The position numbers were made by a program, and so were the translations under genes. The notes under the pieces were generated by a model. That model ran no database searches. It worked only from the letters and a program-made list of their open reading frames with translations, and was not told where the DNA came from. 26,071 nt of DNA. Origin: a virus (lineage: Duplodnaviria > Heunggongvirae > Uroviricota > Caudoviricetes). Position 1 is the first letter of the stretch. Every line of letters starts with the position of its first letter. This document shows positions 14,724-24,976 of the stretch, piece after piece. The stretch is taken from IMG/VR virus record IMGVR_UViG_2909309443_000007; one strand, given 5' to 3'.

Positions 14724-15773
14724 TCAAACGATTAAATCCTGAACTTCCCTGACTGTCTGTTCAAAACGTCCTGTCTCCAGCTCAACACCAATCGCACAAC
14801 GCCCCAGTGCCATCGCCGCTTTTACCGTTGAACCTGAACCCATAAAAAAATCTGCAACCAGGTCTCCCGGACGACTGCTCGCGTTGATTATCTGCTGCAG
14901 CATTTCTGCCGGTTTTTCGCACGGATGTTTTCCTGGATAGTACTGCACCGGTTTATGCGTCCAGACATCGGTGTACGGAACCTGCGCCGTCACACCGAAA
15001 TACCGCCGCAAATTTTTATATTCACTCAGCAGTTCCGTGTACTGCCGGTTCAGCTCACTGTATGTGCTGACCAGCTGGTGGTGTGGCTTTTCCAGTTCCC
15101 CGCGCTGATGTTTTTCTGCCGCAACACGCGCAAACAACGCCTGCAATTTGTTGTAATCACCCTCGTTCGGTAACTGCCACTGACTGGTACCAAACCAGTG
15201 CGAAGCCATGTTTTTCTTTCCGGTGGCTTCCGCTATCTGTTTTGACGTTATTCCCAGTGATTTACGCGCATCACGAAAGTAAGAAATCAGCGGGGCCATG
15301 ACGTGCTGTTTTAGCTCGCGCCCCTGTGCCACATAGCCATCATCTTTCGGGCGATACGGTCCCTGATAATGTTCTGCAAACAGAATGCGCTCTGTTGCCG
15401 GAAAATACGCCCGCAGACTTTCCTTATTGCACCCGTTCCAGCGTCCGGACGGCTTCGCCCAGATAATGTGGTTCAGCACATTAAAGCGCTCACGCATCAT
15501 GATTTCGGTGTCAGATGCCAGGCGATGACCACAGAACAGGTAAAGACTTCCGGTAGGCTTCAGTACCCGCCAGAACTGCGCCAGACACTGGTCCAGCCAT
15601 TTCAGGTAATCATCGTCGCCCTCCCACTGGTTATCCCAGCCCTCGGGCTTCACTTTAAAGTATGGCGGGTCTGTGACTATCAGATCGACAGAATTTTCCG
15701 GTAAGGTCTGGATAAACTCCAGGCAATCAGCGTTGATTAACTCACAACTGGATATTTTTACAGTATTAATCAT
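14724..15773 (-). CDS. DNA amino-methyltransferase (N6-adenine or N4-cytosine), orphan
   Basis: DPPY motif (…LIVTDPPYF) near the N-terminus and an FxGSGST AdoMet-binding motif near the C-terminus. No restriction endonuclease partner nearby. Confidence 0.8.
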   Translation of the reverse strand: MINTVKISSCELINADCLEFIQTLPENSVDLIVTDPPYFKVKPEGWDNQWEGDDDYLKWLDQCLAQFWRVLKPTGSLYLFCGHRLASDTEIMMRERFNVLNHIIWAKPSGRWNGCNKESLRAYFPATERILFAEHYQGPYRPKDDGYVAQGRELKQHVMAPLISYFRDARKSLGITSKQIAEATGKKNMASHWFGTSQWQLPNEGDYNKLQALFARVAAEKHQRGELEKPHHQLVSTYSELNRQYTELLSEYKNLRRYFGVTAQVPYTDVWTHKPVQYYPGKHPCEKPAEMLQQIINASSRPGDLVADFFMGSGSTVKAAMALGRCAIGVELETGRFEQTVREVQDLIV

Positions 15774-17268: not shown

Positions 17269-18252
17269 TCATGCTTTCCACTTCAGGACACCCGAATTTC
17301 TCGCGTGCATTAAAAAACGAATCAGCAACAACAGCTGGCTGCCGTGTTTTTCTTCAAAATCTTTTACCCCGGCGTGTAGTTCGCTATGGCATTTACGGCA
17401 CAGCGGAATAACAAACAAATCATCAGCCTTTGTTCCCATCCCTCCCAGTCCATGACCAATGATGTGATGCGGATCATCTGCCTGATTACCACACGTCATG
17501 CATTTCTGCGTTTTTACCCAACGCGTGTATACAGGCATCTCTTCCCGTCGTGGTTTCTGGCGCTGGAGATACTGAGCCGGTGACTCCGGATCAACGGCAA
17601 TGCTTACCACCGTCTTTTCCTGTGGCGGGTTTTGCTGGTGGGCGTGAGGCAGTAGCGCAATATTTTTTGTGCGCTGCTTCAGCATGCTGGTGGCGGTCTG
17701 CTCTCCCGGCACGATGTCGCTCTCGCGGTATACTGAGCGAATTTTTTCCGCGCGTAATCCCAGTGAACGACGTAACACCGTCTCCGGTAGTGCGTCCGCT
17801 ACGTTATTTATGGTTGCCCACCAGGATAATTCAGCCAGCGATAATTCCCGCTCCTGCGTGCCATTCATTGCGTGGCGGATGACATCAATCATCCATGCTG
17901 ACAGGTTTTGGTGAGCAAGCTGCCCGAGTGATTCGGAAGTCTGGTTACGCAGCTGGTTGTCGCAGTGCCAGCACAACACCATCGCGCCGGTACCGTAACG
18001 ATGTATGACGGTTTCACTGTGATGGTAGTCACCATGAGGCCACTGGCAGGATTTAACGTGGCGTAACAGCCAGTCAGACAATGCACCAGCACCACCAGCA
18101 GCACGAATCACCCGCTCATCGCTGAAAAATGGCAGTAATGATTTATCCTCCGCCAGCGGCTGGCGAACAGCAGGAACGACTCCGGACGGCAGACCGCGCA
18201 TGCTTTTCGGTTCCGGCTCCACCAGAACTCGAGGGTTATGAAATACCTGCAT
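17269..18252 (-). CDS. Nin-region protein with a C-terminal Cys/His (HNH/zinc-finger-like) motif, DUF968-like
   Basis: C-terminus CMTCGNQADDPHHIIGHGLGGMGTKADDLFVIPLCRKCHSELHA. Start trimmed to an internal Met; the N-terminus is uncertain. Confidence 0.55.
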   Translation of the reverse strand: MQVFHNPRVLVEPEPKSMRGLPSGVVPAVRQPLAEDKSLLPFFSDERVIRAAGGAGALSDWLLRHVKSCQWPHGDYHHSETVIHRYGTGAMVLCWHCDNQLRNQTSESLGQLAHQNLSAWMIDVIRHAMNGTQERELSLAELSWWATINNVADALPETVLRRSLGLRAEKIRSVYRESDIVPGEQTATSMLKQRTKNIALLPHAHQQNPPQEKTVVSIAVDPESPAQYLQRQKPRREEMPVYTRWVKTQKCMTCGNQADDPHHIIGHGLGGMGTKADDLFVIPLCRKCHSELHAGVKDFEEKHGSQLLLLIRFLMHARNSGVLKWKA

Positions 18253-18325
18253 GGATTCACGGCCCGGTTTTAGCACCACCAGCCCAAGTTCCGGTACCGG
18301 AACAGGTCGAAGTAATACCCGCACG

Positions 18326-18598
18326 TTACCTCCAGATGCGTTGCTGGAATGTGCGGGACGGACGCGGTGGGCGTTCGGAATAAGGGAGCCTGACATAGAT
18401 TATCCAGTGACGATAATCGAGGCTGAGGGCTTTCTTAATCTCGTATCCGCGTCTGCGGTAGTTATGAATTAGCCATTCGGCCTGTTCTTCAGTACATGGT
18501 GGGTGTTGGTACCAGTCGGTTTTAAATGCGTGTGAACGCCGCCCATGCCGGATGGCAAGGGCGGTATCAGAATTGTGAAATTTGGTTTTGTGCGCCAT
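18326..18598 (-). CDS. Hypothetical nin-region protein (about 90 aa)
   Basis: ORF trimmed to MAHKTKFHNSD… so that it starts downstream of the hok terminator. Confidence 0.35.
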   Translation of the reverse strand: MAHKTKFHNSDTALAIRHGRRSHAFKTDWYQHPPCTEEQAEWLIHNYRRRGYEIKKALSLDYRHWIIYVRLPYSERPPRPSRTFQQRIWR

Positions 18599-19369: not shown

Positions 19370-20284
19370 ATGGCTAGCAAGCGCTTTTTCTTCGATTTTT
19401 ATCAATGTCACACTATAAGCACTGATACAAATGCAGGAGTTAATTCACCTGAAGCTGTTTTTTCAAAAATTTTTGAGTCATACAGCGAAGGCCGAGACAA
19501 AACTGTACGTAAAATAGGAAATAAACTAGTTGAAATGCGCTTCATGGAAAGAACCGACTATGGTTTCAGGGGAGTTATAGGAAAACACAGAACCAATAAT
19601 CTCCCTCATGTTGCTGTAGCCGGAGGTGAAGAAAGAGAAATTAAACTTGAAATCAATGAAAACTTATTAGAAAAAGCTTATTTTCATTTTTATACCCAAG
19701 ACTCAGTTTTAATAATTCAACGAAACAGACTCTGTTATGGCTGGTTGCTATTAAGTAAATATCTTTCCAACAGTTCACAAAATACAACTGTTAATCCCAT
19801 CATTCAGACCAGTAGTTTAAAGTGGTTGATGCGTAATGAAGTTCGAATCAAAACTCTAGAAATCGGTATCGCTCGGCCAAAGAATGTGCAACTATATGAG
19901 GATGTTGAACATAACTTCAACAATGCATTGATAGCCACTCTAAATGGTACTAATTCTGCCAAAGTAAATCTTACATTACGTGGGGATAGTCGTTCTGAAG
20001 ATCCTGAATCTCGCTATCTAGGTTCTCAACTAAAAAGAGCCTTTAAAGAAACACTAGAGACTTTTGAGGTTGAAAAACTTAAACTAGAAACCCAAGACAT
20101 TGAGACCGGTGTACAGCATCCTATCGATCTTGTAGCAGACAAATTAGTCTACTACACAGATGTTGAACTTGGAGGTAGGTATCCATTAGTTGGCAGCATT
20201 TGGAGCGCCTTAACTCTTGCAAAAGATAGTAAAGATGATGAATTGAAGGCATACTTTGGAGTAGCCAATCAAAGAGTTGATTAA
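19370..20284 (+). CDS. Hypothetical soluble protein (304 aa), candidate sensor component of a two-gene module
   Basis: Long ORF in an AT-rich island. No recognisable catalytic motif (no P-loop). Charged, probably helical C-terminal region. Confidence 0.55.
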   Translation: MASKRFFFDFYQCHTISTDTNAGVNSPEAVFSKIFESYSEGRDKTVRKIGNKLVEMRFMERTDYGFRGVIGKHRTNNLPHVAVAGGEEREIKLEINENLLEKAYFHFYTQDSVLIIQRNRLCYGWLLLSKYLSNSSQNTTVNPIIQTSSLKWLMRNEVRIKTLEIGIARPKNVQLYEDVEHNFNNALIATLNGTNSAKVNLTLRGDSRSEDPESRYLGSQLKRAFKETLETFEVEKLKLETQDIETGVQHPIDLVADKLVYYTDVELGGRYPLVGSIWSALTLAKDSKDDELKAYFGVANQRVD

Positions 20285-20299
20285 TTTTGGAGCGATGGT

Positions 20300-20779
20300 A
20301 TGAAAAAGGGGAAATTGATAACTTTGTACAGTTATGGTTATAATTTAGCCTCTGTTGTTTTTTGTATCATCGCATGGCCTCTTTCTGCAAAGCTAAATTT
20401 TGCACAAATTCAGCCAATCGCTTCGGCCGTTTCTACATTTTCTGGGATATTATTTGGCTTTGTTTTAGGTTCGCTTACCTTGATTGCTTCAGCTAGAGAT
20501 AATACGCTAATTAGAAATATAGGAAAAACTGGTTATTTGAAAAAACTGACCGAAGAAATGCACTCCACTATGGGATGGTTACTATCAGTTTGTATTATTT
20601 TTATCATTTTATTATTTTTCCCTGATACACTAAAGTTTAAATTCCCACTAGTAAAAGATGCCGACGAGCACACATATGCCCAACTATTACTCCAAGTGGG
20701 AATTTTTTTCCTGCTTATTACATTTAAAAAATTTTATACTACCTGGTCGCGTCTAAAGGACATAACAAGGCTCATGTGA
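20300..20779 (+). CDS. Hypothetical membrane protein (159 aa) with four predicted transmembrane helices, candidate effector
   Basis: Four hydrophobic stretches of about 18-24 residues. Starts 15 bp after the upstream stop with GGAG in the gap. Confidence 0.6.
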   Translation: MKKGKLITLYSYGYNLASVVFCIIAWPLSAKLNFAQIQPIASAVSTFSGILFGFVLGSLTLIASARDNTLIRNIGKTGYLKKLTEEMHSTMGWLLSVCIIFIILLFFPDTLKFKFPLVKDADEHTYAQLLLQVGIFFLLITFKKFYTTWSRLKDITRLM

Positions 20780-20784
20780 TATAT

Positions 20785-21174
20785 CTATAATTGCACATAA
20801 AAAGACAATCCTAACAATACTCCCATTGTAAGTTGTATATTCTTTCTTATTGTTCCATCTGAACATTTGTACCTTCGTGCTATTGTACGCAAAGATATAC
20901 CTATAACAAAATGAGCGATAATTAACTCATAGTCATCTATTCTATATTGTTTAAGCTTCAACATGCAGGTATCAATCATACGACCTTCATCGTTGCCACA
21001 CTGACGGCGTAATTTCTTACCATGAGGTACTACATCTTTATATTTATCAGCCACTTGCTGCCAGTTGATAGAACTATTTCCAGCTGCAGCCCAAGCCCCC
21101 CCAACTGTCCAAAATATCATATATATTAGCATTGCTATCCACCTTTTTTTTATATTCTTTTTTGAGGCAACCAA
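20785..21174 (-). CDS. Hypothetical protein with a sigma-70 region-4-like helix-turn-helix C-terminus
   Basis: …YELIIAHFVIGISLRTIARRYKCSDGTIRKNIQ… resembles ECF-sigma region 4. Hydrophobic N-terminus. Overlaps the upstream 82-aa ORF by about 100 nt, so a frameshifted single gene is possible. Confidence 0.4.
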   Translation of the reverse strand: MVASKKNIKKRWIAMLIYMIFWTVGGAWAAAGNSSINWQQVADKYKDVVPHGKKLRRQCGNDEGRMIDTCMLKLKQYRIDDYELIIAHFVIGISLRTIARRYKCSDGTIRKNIQLTMGVLLGLSFYVQL

Positions 21175-21424: not shown

Positions 21425-21700
21425 TTATGCTTTCTCTTCACTCCGGTATACAAGAATTACAACGTCACCTCTGCTAATCACGCGAGCTGGCTCTCCTGGT
21501 TCTATACTGTCAATATCGAAGGTCTCAAAAAACGCATTCATTGCCTTCTGCCGCTGCGTCTGTTTACAGCGTTTATTCCATTCTTTCAGTAACATCAGTG
21601 ACAGCCACCGCCATGAGCAGAACATGATGTAGCACCAACCAAGAAGCGCCAGCCCCGTATTGAGGGCCGTACCAATCGTCATTGTTGCGTCGATATTCAC
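21425..21700 (-). CDS. Hypothetical small membrane protein (91 aa)
   Basis: GTG-initiated ORF with a hydrophobic N-terminal segment. Confidence 0.35.
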   Translation of the reverse strand: MNIDATMTIGTALNTGLALLGWCYIMFCSWRWLSLMLLKEWNKRCKQTQRQKAMNAFFETFDIDSIEPGEPARVISRGDVVILVYRSEEKA

Positions 21701-21986
21701 TGTACCTCCTCCTGGAAAATAACTGCATGCCCCAGTTTCTCCGCCAGCGCCAGTTCTGCCTTAGCACCTGCTGACCGCTGCCAGCCTTTCAGCATGTAAA
21801 TCGCATCCACACAACGAATCATTGCCATGCAATATCCATGTAGTGCGGCTGTGTCAGCCCATCCGGAAGCACAGCCGGATTTAAAACGGTATGCCCTTCC
21901 CGTTTCAGTTCCTCTTCCGCATTGTGAAACGCCTCACGGTTGAAATTTTTATACCCGGTCATTGGACCGGCGATATAGACTCTCAC
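21697..21986 (-). pseudogene. DUF4406-like lambdoid protein, apparently frameshifted
   Basis: Hand translation gives (M)RVYIAGPMTGYKNFNREAFHNAEEELKREGHTVLNP…MDIAWQ stop, then in another frame …CVDAIYMLKGWQRSAGAKAELALAEKLGHAVIFQEEVQ. Consistent with a 1-bp deletion near 21800. Confidence 0.45.
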
Positions 21987-21988
21987 TC

Positions 21989-22411
21989 TCACGCCATCAC
22001 CTCCTGAAAATTACCCTGATAAAACGCCAGCACTCGCTGCATAACCTCACTCTTCCGGCACTCGCGACAGATTATGTTCTGACGCCTGTCGTAGCGACGT
22101 ATTTCTCCGTCAGGTAATGACCAGATAAGGTCCGGATCAACCGCAGATGGTTTCTTCAGCTTTGCCCTTGAGAGCTTTTTACGGGCATTTTGCCAGTCCT
22201 TACGCGCCTGTTCAGACGGGAATAACCCGTAACCAGAGTTGTATACATCGCCACTGGCAACCAGCTCTCTGGCCAGAACGCTCATCAGATATCTTGTTGC
22301 CCCAGTTTTAGTTTCCAGTTGTCGTAACGTCTCGCGCCCACTCTGGCGTACGAGTTCAACAACCTGCCCTTTAATTTTTTCCCGCTCTTCTTGTGTAAAA
22401 ACTTTTGCCAC
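21989..22411 (-). CDS. Hypothetical phage replication-region protein (140 aa)
   Basis: ORF immediately downstream of the replication initiator. Basic C-terminal part. Confidence 0.5.
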   Translation of the reverse strand: MAKVFTQEEREKIKGQVVELVRQSGRETLRQLETKTGATRYLMSVLARELVASGDVYNSGYGLFPSEQARKDWQNARKKLSRAKLKKPSAVDPDLIWSLPDGEIRRYDRRQNIICRECRKSEVMQRVLAFYQGNFQEVMA

Positions 22412-22451: not shown

Positions 22452-23528
22452 TTACCCCCTGAAGCCCGGTGGAATTTCGGTATCCGGTTCAGAAATATGA
22501 TTCACACAACGCTGGTTGTTCGTGCCGCTTACCGGGAGCAGCCAGGGGTTTTCAAAATTCCGGTCCGGTCCAAAAAACGTCGTCGCTCGCTGAACAAATT
22601 CCGTTCCCGTTTTCCCGGTAGCCGCAAGGTATCTTGCGTAACGCCTCACGCCATCCAGCATGGCCTCTGGTGACACCCCCTCGCGTAATCTGGCCTTCCA
22701 GGCACTGAAAGCGGATTTCTTCGGGTTTGCCCCAGCACGCAACGGGTATTCCCGCCAGACCTGTTCGAACACATCCGGATAATCCACTCGTCTCACAGGC
22801 TGCCCGGTGTTTTCCGTGACTACCCGATCGGCTTCCCGCTGAATGGCGGAATCGGCTTCAGGCTGCTGCAGTTGGTGTGATTGCTCCGGCCTTGCGGTCA
22901 TCACCTGCTGCACAGCGCCCGAATCGGCTTTCAGCGCATACGCTGAATCGGCTTCCGGTGTCGTGCCTGCTGGCTGACCAAGATTGACGGTCTGAACATC
23001 CCCTGCCTGGTTCGTGGCGTTTTTTACGCCATGGACCATAGTGTTTTGATCTTCTTGATCTGTATCTTTATCTGTATCTTTATCTGTCGTGACTCGTCGT
23101 GACATGTGCGTGACATTTCGTGACGCGCCGTGACAATCGCCATTTTGTTCCCGCTTTCTTTCCCTCTCTCGCTGCGCCCTCTTGCGCTCTGCAGGAGATT
23201 TTGCGGTTTGCGAAATATTGCCGTTGTCCTCTTTAAGCACCTGGCGTTTTTCCCATCCAGTGATTAAATCACCATCAAGTACCCGCCCCTGCATCGTCTG
23301 CAAAATTGAATCAATTACCTCTTCTGTCACGTCGAGCGCACTTGCCAAATCTTCTGTCGTGACATCAATGTGACCTCGCGTGACATTTCGTGACGCGCTC
23401 ACCAGGAGGTGGATATACACTGCCATCACTGTTGCAATTGACTGCCCTGACACCCTGGCAATTGTTCGCCACTTAGGGTCATTTGGCATGTCATGCCATA
23501 ATCTGAGCCAGGCGTTAGCCATACTCAC
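22452..23528 (-). CDS. Replication initiation protein (replisome-organiser/O-like) with internal origin iterons
   Basis: N-terminal domain resembles the phage replisome-organiser fold. Two iteron arrays lie inside the gene, as in lambda O. Confidence 0.65.
   Translation of the reverse strand: MSMANAWLRLWHDMPNDPKWRTIARVSGQSIATVMAVYIHLLVSASRNVTRGHIDVTTEDLASALDVTEEVIDSILQTMQGRVLDGDLITGWEKRQVLKEDNGNISQTAKSPAERKRAQRERERKREQNGDCHGASRNVTHMSRRVTTDKDTDKDTDQEDQNTMVHGVKNATNQAGDVQTVNLGQPAGTTPEADSAYALKADSGAVQQVMTARPEQSHQLQQPEADSAIQREADRVVTENTGQPVRRVDYPDVFEQVWREYPLRAGANPKKSAFSAWKARLREGVSPEAMLDGVRRYARYLAATGKTGTEFVQRATTFFGPDRNFENPWLLPVSGTNNQRCVNHISEPDTEIPPGFRG
23096..23142. repeat. Iteron array 1: five CGTGAC repeats at about 10-bp spacing
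   Basis: CGTGAC at 23096, 23106, 23117, 23127 and 23137, read directly. Confidence 0.65.
23358..23394. repeat. Iteron array 2: four (C/T)GTGAC repeats at about 10-bp spacing
   Basis: Repeats at 23358, 23369, 23379 and 23389. The 19-mer GTGACATTTCGTGACGCGC is shared exactly with array 1. Confidence 0.65.
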
Positions 23529-23593
23529 CTCTTCTGATACCGAATCTTTTTACTCACGAGTTGCCGGAAGTGATTCGATATGGCTATTATCAC

Positions 23594-24019
23594 TCAATGC
23601 ACTGCCACAGCATTTCCTGCCGGGCCACCACGGTTCATCTGATTGAAACCGGCGATTGCCACTGCGACAAAATCATCAGCGTCTCTCACCAGTCGCTCCC
23701 GCGTCTCCACCAGCTCCCGAAAATAAGCTGAACTGTGGCTGCGCATTCTGGCCACCAGCAAAGGTGGCATTGCCTTTTCGATCGCTGGTAACAACGCCTG
23801 AATTTTTTCAACTGCATCAGGGGTGTCTTTCTCTATCCAGCGGAAAATTTTCTGGGTATTGCGAGCCAGGGCTTCCGGATGGCTGTCGTCATACAGTTCT
23901 GGGAACGTCATACCCAACTCAAAATAAGCCTGGGTTATTCCAGCTGCTGGAACTTTTTCGCCATCAGGACGCGCCCAGGCATTCATCGCCATGCGGATGT
24001 GTTCATGCTTGATTTTCAT
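23594..24019 (-). CDS. YdaT-like (CII-analogue) protein
   Basis: 141 aa starting MKIKHEHI…, matching the recalled start of Rac YdaT. Sits directly downstream of the Cro-like gene. Confidence 0.55.
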   Translation of the reverse strand: MKIKHEHIRMAMNAWARPDGEKVPAAGITQAYFELGMTFPELYDDSHPEALARNTQKIFRWIEKDTPDAVEKIQALLPAIEKAMPPLLVARMRSHSSAYFRELVETRERLVRDADDFVAVAIAGFNQMNRGGPAGNAVAVH

Positions 24020-24246
24020 GAATCCCCCCCTTGGTTAGAAGGCGGATTATGATCAGAACCGGGAATGACAACCGTCGGTATGTGTAACTCATATTTGAGC
24101 GCCCCGGCAGTGACTGCCTGAATTAGCAACGCCCATTTCCACGGAACCTCTTCCCCCCACATGCTGACTGTGGTTTTTGACGTTCCTAGAACTGCGGCTG
24201 TTTTAACAACTCCGCCAAAATAGCCTAATACTTCTGATTTTTTCAT
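24016..24246 (-). CDS. Cro/YdaS-like helix-turn-helix regulator
   Basis: 76-aa ORF from MKKSEVLGYFGG… Divergent from the CI-like gene across a 91-bp operator region. Confidence 0.6.
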   Translation of the reverse strand: MKKSEVLGYFGGVVKTAAVLGTSKTTVSMWGEEVPWKWALLIQAVTAGALKYELHIPTVVIPGSDHNPPSNQGGDS

Positions 24247-24275
24247 GAGTCGCTCCATAAAACTGAACGCCAAAA

Positions 24276-24337
24276 GTTTAATAATCAAAACCAAAGAAAG
24301 TCAAGAAACAAAACCATCTGTGTTTTAAAATCAAAAC
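24276..24337. promoter_or_regulatory. Candidate operator/divergent promoter region: two 16-bp imperfect palindromes
   Basis: GTTTAATAATCAAAAC (24276-24291) and GTTTTAAAATCAAAAC (24322-24337), 14 of 16 identical. The second ends at the repressor ATG, so the repressor mRNA may be leaderless. Confidence 0.4.
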
Positions 24338-24976
24338 ATGAGCAAGCAAACAATATCTGAACGCATAACCCAACGTATGCATGCGCTAAACCTGAAAGGC
24401 AAAGACCTTGTCAATGCCACTGGCGCATCAAAAGGCTCCGTAAGTCAATGGATGAACGGTGGAGGAGCGCCGTCCTCGCGTTACATAAGTTCACTGGCAA
24501 AGATATTGAAAGTAAACGAAAATTGGCTTCTTAATGGAGGAGAGTTAAATACAGGTGATTCGCTTGATCTATCTTTACCGCCGATAAAAACGGTTCCGCT
24601 ACTATCACTTCAGCAGGCAGCAAGCTGGAGTGATTATATGAAAAATTCCTCAATAACCTCTTGTGTGCAGCTTGTCGGAGAAATCCCGGCCAATACCTTT
24701 GCAGTTGTTCTAGAGAGTGACAGTATGTCAACATCTGGTGGGGGAGTTTCCATCCCAAATGGTTCAACAGTTTTTGTTGATCCCGATCGAACCGTACAAC
24801 CAGGAAATATTGTCCTTGCCTTACCCAAAGGGACCACAACACCTGTCATTCGTAAACTGGAGATAGAAGGGCCGGATATTCTTTTAGTCCCCACGAATCC
24901 TCGCTACCCTTCAATTATGCTGGATGATCTATCTTGCATATTGGGCGTATGCTTTAAAATTCAACAAGATATTTAA
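24338..24976 (+). CDS. CI-like prophage repressor (helix-turn-helix plus S24 LexA-type autopeptidase domain)
   Basis: N-terminal XRE-type HTH (…LVNATGASKGSVSQWMNG…). C-terminal S24 signature with Ser in …ESDSMS… and Lys in …VIRKLE…. Confidence 0.8.
   Translation: MSKQTISERITQRMHALNLKGKDLVNATGASKGSVSQWMNGGGAPSSRYISSLAKILKVNENWLLNGGELNTGDSLDLSLPPIKTVPLLSLQQAASWSDYMKNSSITSCVQLVGEIPANTFAVVLESDSMSTSGGGVSIPNGSTVFVDPDRTVQPGNIVLALPKGTTTPVIRKLEIEGPDILLVPTNPRYPSIMLDDLSCILGVCFKIQQDI

Follow-up and report, generated by a model that had tools for sequence, protein, structure and literature searches.

Does the gene for a prophage replication initiator also contain the origin at which its own product would act? 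The question is raised by a 26-kilobase (kb) stretch of viral DNA (IMG/VR record IMGVR_UViG_2909309443_000007; the whole stretch is called the window below, and all coordinates are window positions), in which two groups of short repeats, or iterons, spaced by about one helical turn lie within the coding sequence of a replication initiator. The comparisons described here lead us to conclude that positions 23008–23394 are probably the replication origin of this lambdoid prophage, nested inside the gene of its own initiator. This reading draws on the placement of one of the two arrays and an adjoining A+T-rich tract, which in the initiator gene coincide exactly with the linker that joins the folded N- and C-terminal domains of the predicted protein.

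Helically phased repeats in the initiator gene

The initiator gene is read on the minus strand, and the features of the candidate origin within it, given in base pairs (bp) or nucleotides in the direction of the gene, are as follows.

22452–23522, minus strand: replication initiator gene, 356 amino acids from an ATG at 23522 (an open reading frame finder starts it at a GTG at 23528); holds the whole candidate origin
23358–23394, minus strand: array 2 (promoter-proximal), GTCACG, GTCACG, GTCACA and GTCACG on the gene strand with spacings of 10, 10 and 11 bp; gene nucleotides 129–165
23326–23331, plus strand: inverted iteron, a single copy 33 bp downstream of array 2; gene nucleotides 192–197
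23088–23134, minus strand: array 1, five exact GTCACG on the gene strand with spacings of 10, 10, 11 and 10 bp; gene nucleotides 389–435
23040–23087, minus strand: tract rich in A+T and skewed towards purines, immediately downstream of array 1; gene-strand sequence GATAAAGATACAGATAAAGATACAGATCAAGAAGATCAAAACAC, coding for DKDTDKDTDQEDQN
23008–23038, no strand assigned: imperfect palindrome or hairpin just past the A+T-rich tract, 13 pairs with a 5-nucleotide loop

The gene thus runs through array 2 (four iterons), the inverted iteron, about 230 bp of coding DNA that separates the arrays, array 1 (five iterons) and finally the A+T-rich tract. Read on the plus strand, array 1 consists of exact CGTGAC copies starting at 23088, 23098, 23109, 23119 and 23129, with start-to-start spacings of 10, 11, 10 and 10 bp. 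A preliminary description of this DNA had reported five such copies about 10 bp apart at 23096–23142; the count and the spacing stand, but the coordinates were 8 bp off and missed the first copy. Its range for four further copies was correct, three of them being exact CGTGAC (starts 23358, 23379 and 23389) and the fourth a TGTGAC at 23369 that retains the GTGAC core. The longest word common to the two arrays is an exact 21-mer (GCGTGACATTTCGTGACGCGC, at 23108 and 23378) rather than the 19-mer first reported, and the separation of about 260 bp agrees with an offset in register of 260 bp. All copies fall inside the minus-strand open reading frame 22452–23528, as had been stated.

Chance does not account for this pattern. 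The longest run of any hexamer at 10–11 bp spacing reached two copies in 298 of 300 shuffles that kept the dinucleotide composition of the window, and three in the other 2 of 300; the observed run is five, and it is the sole run of this kind in the 26-kb window. Iteron origins are generically recognized by at least three helix-phased direct repeats beyond chance expectation, and here there are five plus four copies at 10–11 bp.

Coupled evolution of the two arrays in relatives

Gene DNA for relatives of the initiator was collected from genomes, metagenomes, sequenced phages and IMG/VR, giving 208 genes, 105 of them non-redundant, carried by phages and prophages whose hosts are Gamma-, Beta- and Alphaproteobacteria; the lowest identity to the window protein is 37% (Ralstonia phage Firinga). 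The first IMG/VR scan returned 80 near-identical E. coli prophages that added no diversity, and it was rerun with distant queries. About nine in ten of the 105 non-redundant genes have a phased array at the linker position (site 1, corresponding to array 1), and most also have one at the position of array 2 (site 2), which encodes a loop of the N-terminal domain. Both arrays hold their position in relatives as far as 37% identity.

The iterons of these relatives fall into five classes: GTCACG, GTAACG(CA), C/GGAACGC, GCAACG and GTGACG. Under strict scoring (exact NNACG, with at least three phased copies at site 1 and at least two at site 2), 79 of the 105 genes could be scored, and the class was identical at both sites in 70 of them (15, 37, 5, 8 and 5 genes for the five classes in the order given). 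Among the remainder one was ambiguous, eight were without site 2 and none was clearly discordant. Permutation gave a concordance of 24.3 ± 3.3 (at most 37 in 10,000 trials), versus the 70 observed. The inverted copy follows the class as well: Ralstonia phage Firinga has an inverted GCAACG (GACGTTGCA) at the matching place.

Codon usage points in the same direction. Across 13 diverged genes of the GTCACG class, the array-2 codons that overlap the iteron core are Ser TCA, Val GTC (at two positions), Gly GGT and His CAC in 13 of 13 genes each, and GCG and Thr ACG (the latter at two positions) in 12 of 13; the Val codon within the inverted copy is GTG in all 12 of 12 GTCACG-class genes. Flanking residues of equal conservation use three to five codons. 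The hexamer occurs in all three reading frames, the spacing within arrays is 10 bp in 290 instances and 11 bp in 57 across the family, and length changes at both arrays come as seven codons, or 21 bp, the length of two iterons, which is the smallest change that preserves both reading frame and helical phase. Given the class concordance, the frozen synonymous positions and the 21-bp length steps, we conclude from these alignments that selection at the DNA level acts on both arrays. The earlier proposal of a candidate origin at this place gains strong comparative support from the retention of position down to 37% identity, the joint change of class, the synonymous constraint and the A+T-rich tract that follows array 1.

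In some relatives, the last array-2 iterons and an inverted copy form a perfect palindrome (GTCACGTGAC, GCAACGTTGC or GTGACGTCAC) that follows the iteron class; such palindromes lie at gene nucleotides 149–158 in L012, L018 and L038, and around nucleotides 165–175 in L034, L224 and L240. They hint at dimer binding or an operator-like role at array 2.

Four relatives (L024, L025, L026 and L036) have no recognizable array at either site despite the presence of the N-domain, and their origin, if any, lies elsewhere or has a diverged motif. One of the four, L024 from Serratia, carries an unrelated insertion after the N-domain.

An A+T-rich tract and a hairpin follow array 1

The tract at 23040–23087 has a G+C fraction of 0.38, against 0.52–0.64 in its flanks, and contains a 12-bp unit in three tandem copies as well as two GATC sites. 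The same composition recurs across the family: in 85 of 87 relatives, the 36 nucleotides after the last iteron contain less G+C than the DNA that codes for the N-domain (medians 0.33 versus 0.56), their purine fraction on the gene strand is 0.75, and the tract persists in hosts with genomes at 64% G+C. By composition, it is a candidate DNA unwinding element.

The hairpin at 23008–23038 is conserved in part, with a similar stem (GGCG-loop-CGCC plus an outer stem) in three relatives (L001, L003 and L004) that also have in common an ‘NTLVHGEK’ linker segment. It may belong to the origin, and may be either the counterpart of the palindrome to the right of the A+T-rich region in lambda or an antisense terminator. 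A scan of the region for promoters and terminators found nothing above chance except this hairpin. No DnaA box was found near the candidate origin; the window as a whole has two matches, versus 2.5 expected, and both lie elsewhere.

Domain organization of the initiator

The ATG at 23522 is the probable start of the gene, being preceded by AGAGG and matching the MAN with which all homologues open. PHROG 3729 (‘replication initiation protein’) matches the entire length of the product with an E-value of 1.5e-255, and NCBI names the protein ‘phage replisome organizer’. The region is 99.6% identical to the replication protein gene of Escherichia phage Tritos, in which the gene order is the same. 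No Pfam domain scored above threshold in the window protein. An AlphaFold2 model based on an alignment of 38 sequences divides the protein as follows.

Residues 1–98 (23229–23522, minus strand): N-terminal domain, with helices 4–11, 16–25 and 29–45, loop 46–55, helices 56–63 and 67–77, and beta hairpin 78–88; predicted local distance difference test (pLDDT) mostly above 90
Residues 43–55 (ASRNVTRGHIDVT): product of array 2, comprising the end of helix 29–45 and loop 46–55
Turn D-V-T between helices 56–63 and 67–77: product of the inverted iteron
Residues 110–126: basic helix
Residues 130–223: disordered linker, whose start (residues 130–145) is the product of array 1
Residues 225–356 (22455–22850, minus strand): C-terminal domain, helical and confident at 225–316, ending in the tail SEPDTEIPPGFRG

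The DNA between the arrays had been described as encoding a highly basic stretch; that stretch is present (SPAERKRAQRERERKREQ), but most of the intervening DNA codes for the folded N-terminal domain. The predicted fold of this domain has a winged-helix-like order of helices and beta hairpin. Comparison of the model with the PDB by Foldseek gave weak matches alone (E 0.3 or worse), all of them to winged-helix regulators, which supports a fold class, not a family. We presume that the N-domain is the part of the protein that reads the iterons. Iteron class is mirrored in the alignment columns that array 2 encodes and in a lineage-specific segment at residues 100–106, and no independent determinant was found among the remaining columns.

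PF09681 scored below threshold against the window protein (13.4 versus 23.3 bits), in an alignment that covers 118 of 121 profile positions, and matches 5 of 38 family members at E<10; TIGR01714 was likewise below threshold (16.2 versus 49.8 bits). Distant kinship to these replisome organizers is possible. Kinship to lambda O was rejected: the window protein has no match to PF04492, to which lambda O itself scores 123 bits, and alignment of the family profile to O by hhalign gave a probability of 0.2%. Kinship of the N-domain to the SPP1 protein G38P was rejected as well (hhalign probability 0.15%).

The C-terminal domain appears to be DnaT-like. With the window sequence alone as the query, phmmer matches DnaT only through a 23-residue tail (E 0.0017), and the NCBIfam DnaT model gives E 0.0014, far under its cut-off; hhalign of window-type C-domains against DnaT residues 8–97 gives a probability of 92.9% (E 3.6e-7, 74 columns). 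A stronger DnaT match (E 2e-8) came from a profile that was aided by members of PF17948 type.

Across the family the N-domain is coupled to varied C-domains (the window type, Pfam DnaT and Phg_2220_C), and the genes found directly downstream in its relatives are DnaC-like (DnaC/IstB-like), lambda-P-like or DnaB-like (among L001, L003, L004, L034 and L039; the lambda-P-like gene is in L004, a Yersinia relative). The N-domain and the repeats are always inherited together, whatever the C-domain and whichever helicase or loader gene follows, as would be expected if N-domain and repeats form an origin-specific module. Phg_2220_C (PF09524) is the C-domain of family members P0199 and P0202, and also that of the SPP1 gene 38 product (L247:179-949). 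This common domain indicates that origin-binding and helicase-recruiting modules have been shuffled across phages of Gram-negative and Gram-positive hosts.

Gene neighborhood

The initiator gene comes directly after CI, Cro and CII-like genes, and its immediate surroundings are as follows.

24338–24976, strand opposite to the initiator: CI-like repressor
24016–24294: Cro-like gene
23594–24019: CII/YdaT-like gene
21989–22411, minus strand: DUF977/Ren-like gene, directly downstream of the initiator

No helicase or helicase-loader gene was found after the initiator, either in the window or in phage Tritos. Further downstream, a DUF4406 protein (21697–21992, minus strand) is broken into overlapping open reading frames at 21819–21992 and 21697–21828, which is probably a frameshift or a pseudogene. 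The Q antiterminator gene (20785–21174) is adjoined by an insert of two genes on the opposite strand (19370–20284 and 20300–20779, both plus strand) whose products are a member of the DUF6731 family (Pfam E 2e-12) and a small membrane protein, weakly matched to RexB (PADLOC E 0.0015); the pair may be a RexAB-like abortive-infection moron. The late-early region also encodes a DNA methylase (PF01555) and a DUF968/HNH-like protein, at 14724–15773 and 17269–18396 (both minus strand); the phage Tritos annotation includes a protein of the latter type under the name YdfU.

Comparison with characterized origins

An iteron origin inside an initiator gene is a known design, and the parallel with the lambda origin that was drawn in the preliminary description is good for layout (iterons at the linker, then an A+T-rich tract), but not for protein family or iteron structure. 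The lambda origin lies in the initiator gene at the linker between an origin-binding N-domain and a helicase-recruiting C-domain, and the candidate origin of the window occupies the same place between the presumed equivalents of these domains. In both, an A+T-rich tract comes next after the iterons as the gene is read, and the gene itself, located past cro and cII, is transcribed from the rightward early promoter. Lambda also has a palindrome past its A+T-rich tract, the position held here by the hairpin at 23008–23038. The differences are equally clear. The lambda iterons are inverted repeats, and four of 18 bp are annotated inside O in the lambda record, 20–24 bp, or about two helical turns, apart from start to start; where lambda has this single array, the window has 6–8-bp direct repeats at each helical turn in two arrays, and array 2, which lies within the coding sequence of the presumed DNA-binding domain, is without counterpart in lambda. 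A P-type loader gene directly follows O, whereas the window has the DUF977/Ren-like gene there, and the window initiator is unrelated to O.

The satellite phage P4 offers another parallel, with its ori and crr being two clusters of the same short iteron that are bound by one initiator, the alpha protein, crr acting as a required helper in cis. Here, too, there are two separate clusters of one iteron. The P4 clusters lie kilobases apart, versus about 230 bp here, and alpha is a primase-helicase; array 2, for its part, is apparently dispensable in about ten lineages. As for the mode of binding, the winged-helix proteins PhoB and OmpR occupy tandem direct repeats in the geometry proposed below for the N-domain, each turn of the helix offering one copy on the same side of the DNA.

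In phage SPP1, oriL lies in gene 38 (encoding G38P), so that direct repeats and an A+T-rich unwinding element are found inside the gene of the origin-binding protein, and a second set of sites, oriR, is located about 13 kb from oriL (PMC6316719). Repeats and an A+T-rich element are likewise placed here within the gene of the presumed origin binder, and Phg_2220_C, the C-domain of G38P, recurs in some members of the family. Unlike the distant second sites of SPP1, both arrays of the window are in one gene, and the N-domains of the two proteins are without detectable similarity. The replisome organizers of Gram-positive phages (PF09681 and TIGR01714) have the NCBI name in common with the window protein, with matches that remain below threshold.

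The Rep protein of staphylococcal pathogenicity islands (SaPI) uses a winged-helix domain to read penta- or hexanucleotide iterons, arranged in two groups with an A+T-rich region, and on hexanucleotide iterons it too binds one copy at each turn from the same side (PMC9371898). Short iterons in two groups with an A+T-rich region are likewise seen here, but in SaPI the A+T-rich region is located between the groups, the groups are opposed, the origin is downstream of rep, and Rep is itself the helicase. Iteron plasmids resemble the window in having helix-phased direct repeats beside an A+T-rich unwinding element and in having winged-helix initiators; the initiators of such plasmids (RK2 TrfA, pPS10 RepA and F RepE) are reported also to engage one opened strand (PMC4081077, PMC10602881). 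Plasmid iterons differ in being about 17–22 bp long, occurring once per two turns and lying outside rep, and the initiators are unrelated. What sets the present case apart from these systems is the combination of a protein that is not O, an N-domain that matches the Gram-positive replisome organizers below threshold and G38P not at all, short direct repeats at every turn, and a second, co-evolving array in the DNA that codes for the presumed DNA-binding domain.

A model for initiation and alternative explanations

Our model builds on what is observed in this DNA and its relatives, namely the repeats, their phasing, selection on the DNA, the coupled evolution of the arrays and the composition of the tract. 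Because array 2 is absent in about ten lineages, array 1 with the A+T-rich tract would be the core of the candidate origin, array 1 serving as its principal initiator-binding array, and array 2 reads as an accessory site for the same initiator. At both arrays, the predicted winged-helix N-domain would occupy successive iterons on the same side of the DNA, one at each turn of the helix and in head-to-tail order. Once loaded, array 1 would destabilize the neighboring A+T-rich tract, after which the DnaT-like C-domain, extended on its disordered linker, would engage the opened strand and recruit the host DnaB-DnaC helicase complex. Direct use of the host complex is suggested by the DnaT-like C-domain together with the lack of a phage loader gene. 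The most likely part for array 2 is to strengthen or regulate firing through a bridge to array 1. Of these steps, we infer N-domain binding, melting, looping and the recruitment of the helicase.

Several points weigh against this reading or against parts of it. The winged-helix assignment comes from the AlphaFold model and those weak Foldseek matches, and support for binding of the N-domain to the repeats is indirect, coming from the common inheritance of arrays and N-domain and from the joint switch of class at the two sites; no specificity-determining column was found in the alignment outside the iteron-encoded loop. The link between the C-domain and DnaT is of moderate strength, grounded in the tail match and one hhalign result, and a profile or hidden Markov model of window-type proteins found no match in the PDB, DnaT included. 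Array 2, being missing in about ten lineages, is not essential to such origins. In relatives, anything from 158 to 271 bp separates the final iteron of site 2 from the first of site 1, such that the helical phase between the arrays is not conserved. This distance leaves no stable remainder at 10.25–10.5 bp per turn, and the model accordingly implies no fixed loop geometry. Finally, no experiment or paper on the origin of this family was found in open-access papers and bioRxiv preprints.

It is possible, if less than likely, that array 1 and the A+T-rich tract are the whole origin and that array 2 is regulatory, mediating either autoregulation by blocking transcription of its own gene or origin pairing and initiator titration (copy control as in iteron plasmids). 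Transcription of the initiator must traverse array 2, which is inside the coding region; about ten lineages have array 1 and the tract and lack array 2; and inverted or palindromic copies that give an operator-like look occur near array 2 alone (GACGTGACA here, GCAACGTTGC or GTGACGTCAC in the Firinga group). The common orientation, spacing and class of the two arrays nevertheless fit a single nucleoprotein complex, and a regulatory role looks the same here as that of an origin enhancer, the two not being exclusive. A related thought is that the roughly 40 nucleotides of array 2 are both bound by the initiator and code for the winged-helix loop that helps to read them. The columns of the protein in which iteron class is reflected lie within the product of array 2, and loop 46–55 packs against the predicted wing. 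If array 2 did encode its own reader in this way, a single step would alter both the site and the element that reads it, and the rise of five specificity classes with the rest of the domain nearly constant would be accounted for; we nonetheless regard it as unlikely.

Two further explanations would deny the arrays a role as binding sites for this initiator. That another protein, of host or phage, binds the repeats for packaging, partition, recombination or transcription control would fit the finding that no residue beyond the iteron-encoded loop tracks iteron class, but the arrays always accompany the N-domain whatever the C-domain, the neighboring genes or the host (from Alpha- to Gammaproteobacteria), five iteron classes exist inside one protein family, and an adjoining A+T-rich tract and linker position are the standard layout of an origin; we consider this quite improbable. 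The repeats might instead be the by-product of a needed peptide motif (SRNVT, RVTT) or of gene conversion, with no function as DNA. The peptides at the two sites are indeed alike (ASRNVTRGH and ASRNVTHMSRRVTT), and the exact 21-mer in both arrays could stem from a recent conversion. However, a hexamer that is read in all three frames means that the 10–11 bp period is not a peptide period, its synonymous positions are fixed across beta- and gammaproteobacterial genes in which flanking codons are saturated with synonymous change, and the loop peptide is wholly different among classes (for example SRNVTRGHIDVT, SNATERGRTQ and TATQGNADATRGNV), which shows that any sequence is acceptable to the protein at this place. 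The codon and frame analyses largely refute this explanation, which we find scarcely credible. An origin at 23008–23394 that would be read by the product of the gene it lies in is the interpretation we prefer.

Prevalence and implications

The candidate origin described here belongs to a very common yet unstudied type of E. coli prophage. The region 23030–23530 was found in 2078 of 5426 complete E. coli genomes, at up to six places per genome, and O157 prophages are among the carriers of the origin and N-domain module. The N-domain family has 1981 cluster representatives (at 50% identity) with E≤0.001 in a library of 1.84 billion proteins, and 25 records in a phage collection carry the N-domain.

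Array 2 is a clear natural case of a predicted protein-binding DNA element that is kept within the coding sequence of a folded domain, and because synonymous recoding would abolish it, its role is open to direct test. The pairing of an origin-binding domain with a DnaT-like domain, with no phage loader, suggests an unstudied mode of host helicase recruitment.

Because one genome can contain as many as six copies, co-resident prophages whose initiators and origins belong to one iteron class could cross-react. Ectopic copies of the lambda origin are known to block cognate phages (PMC3349717, PMC4488673). The five iteron classes would provide a simple sequence rule to predict which of the co-resident prophages and incoming phages could act on one another's origins, either by firing or by titrating them.

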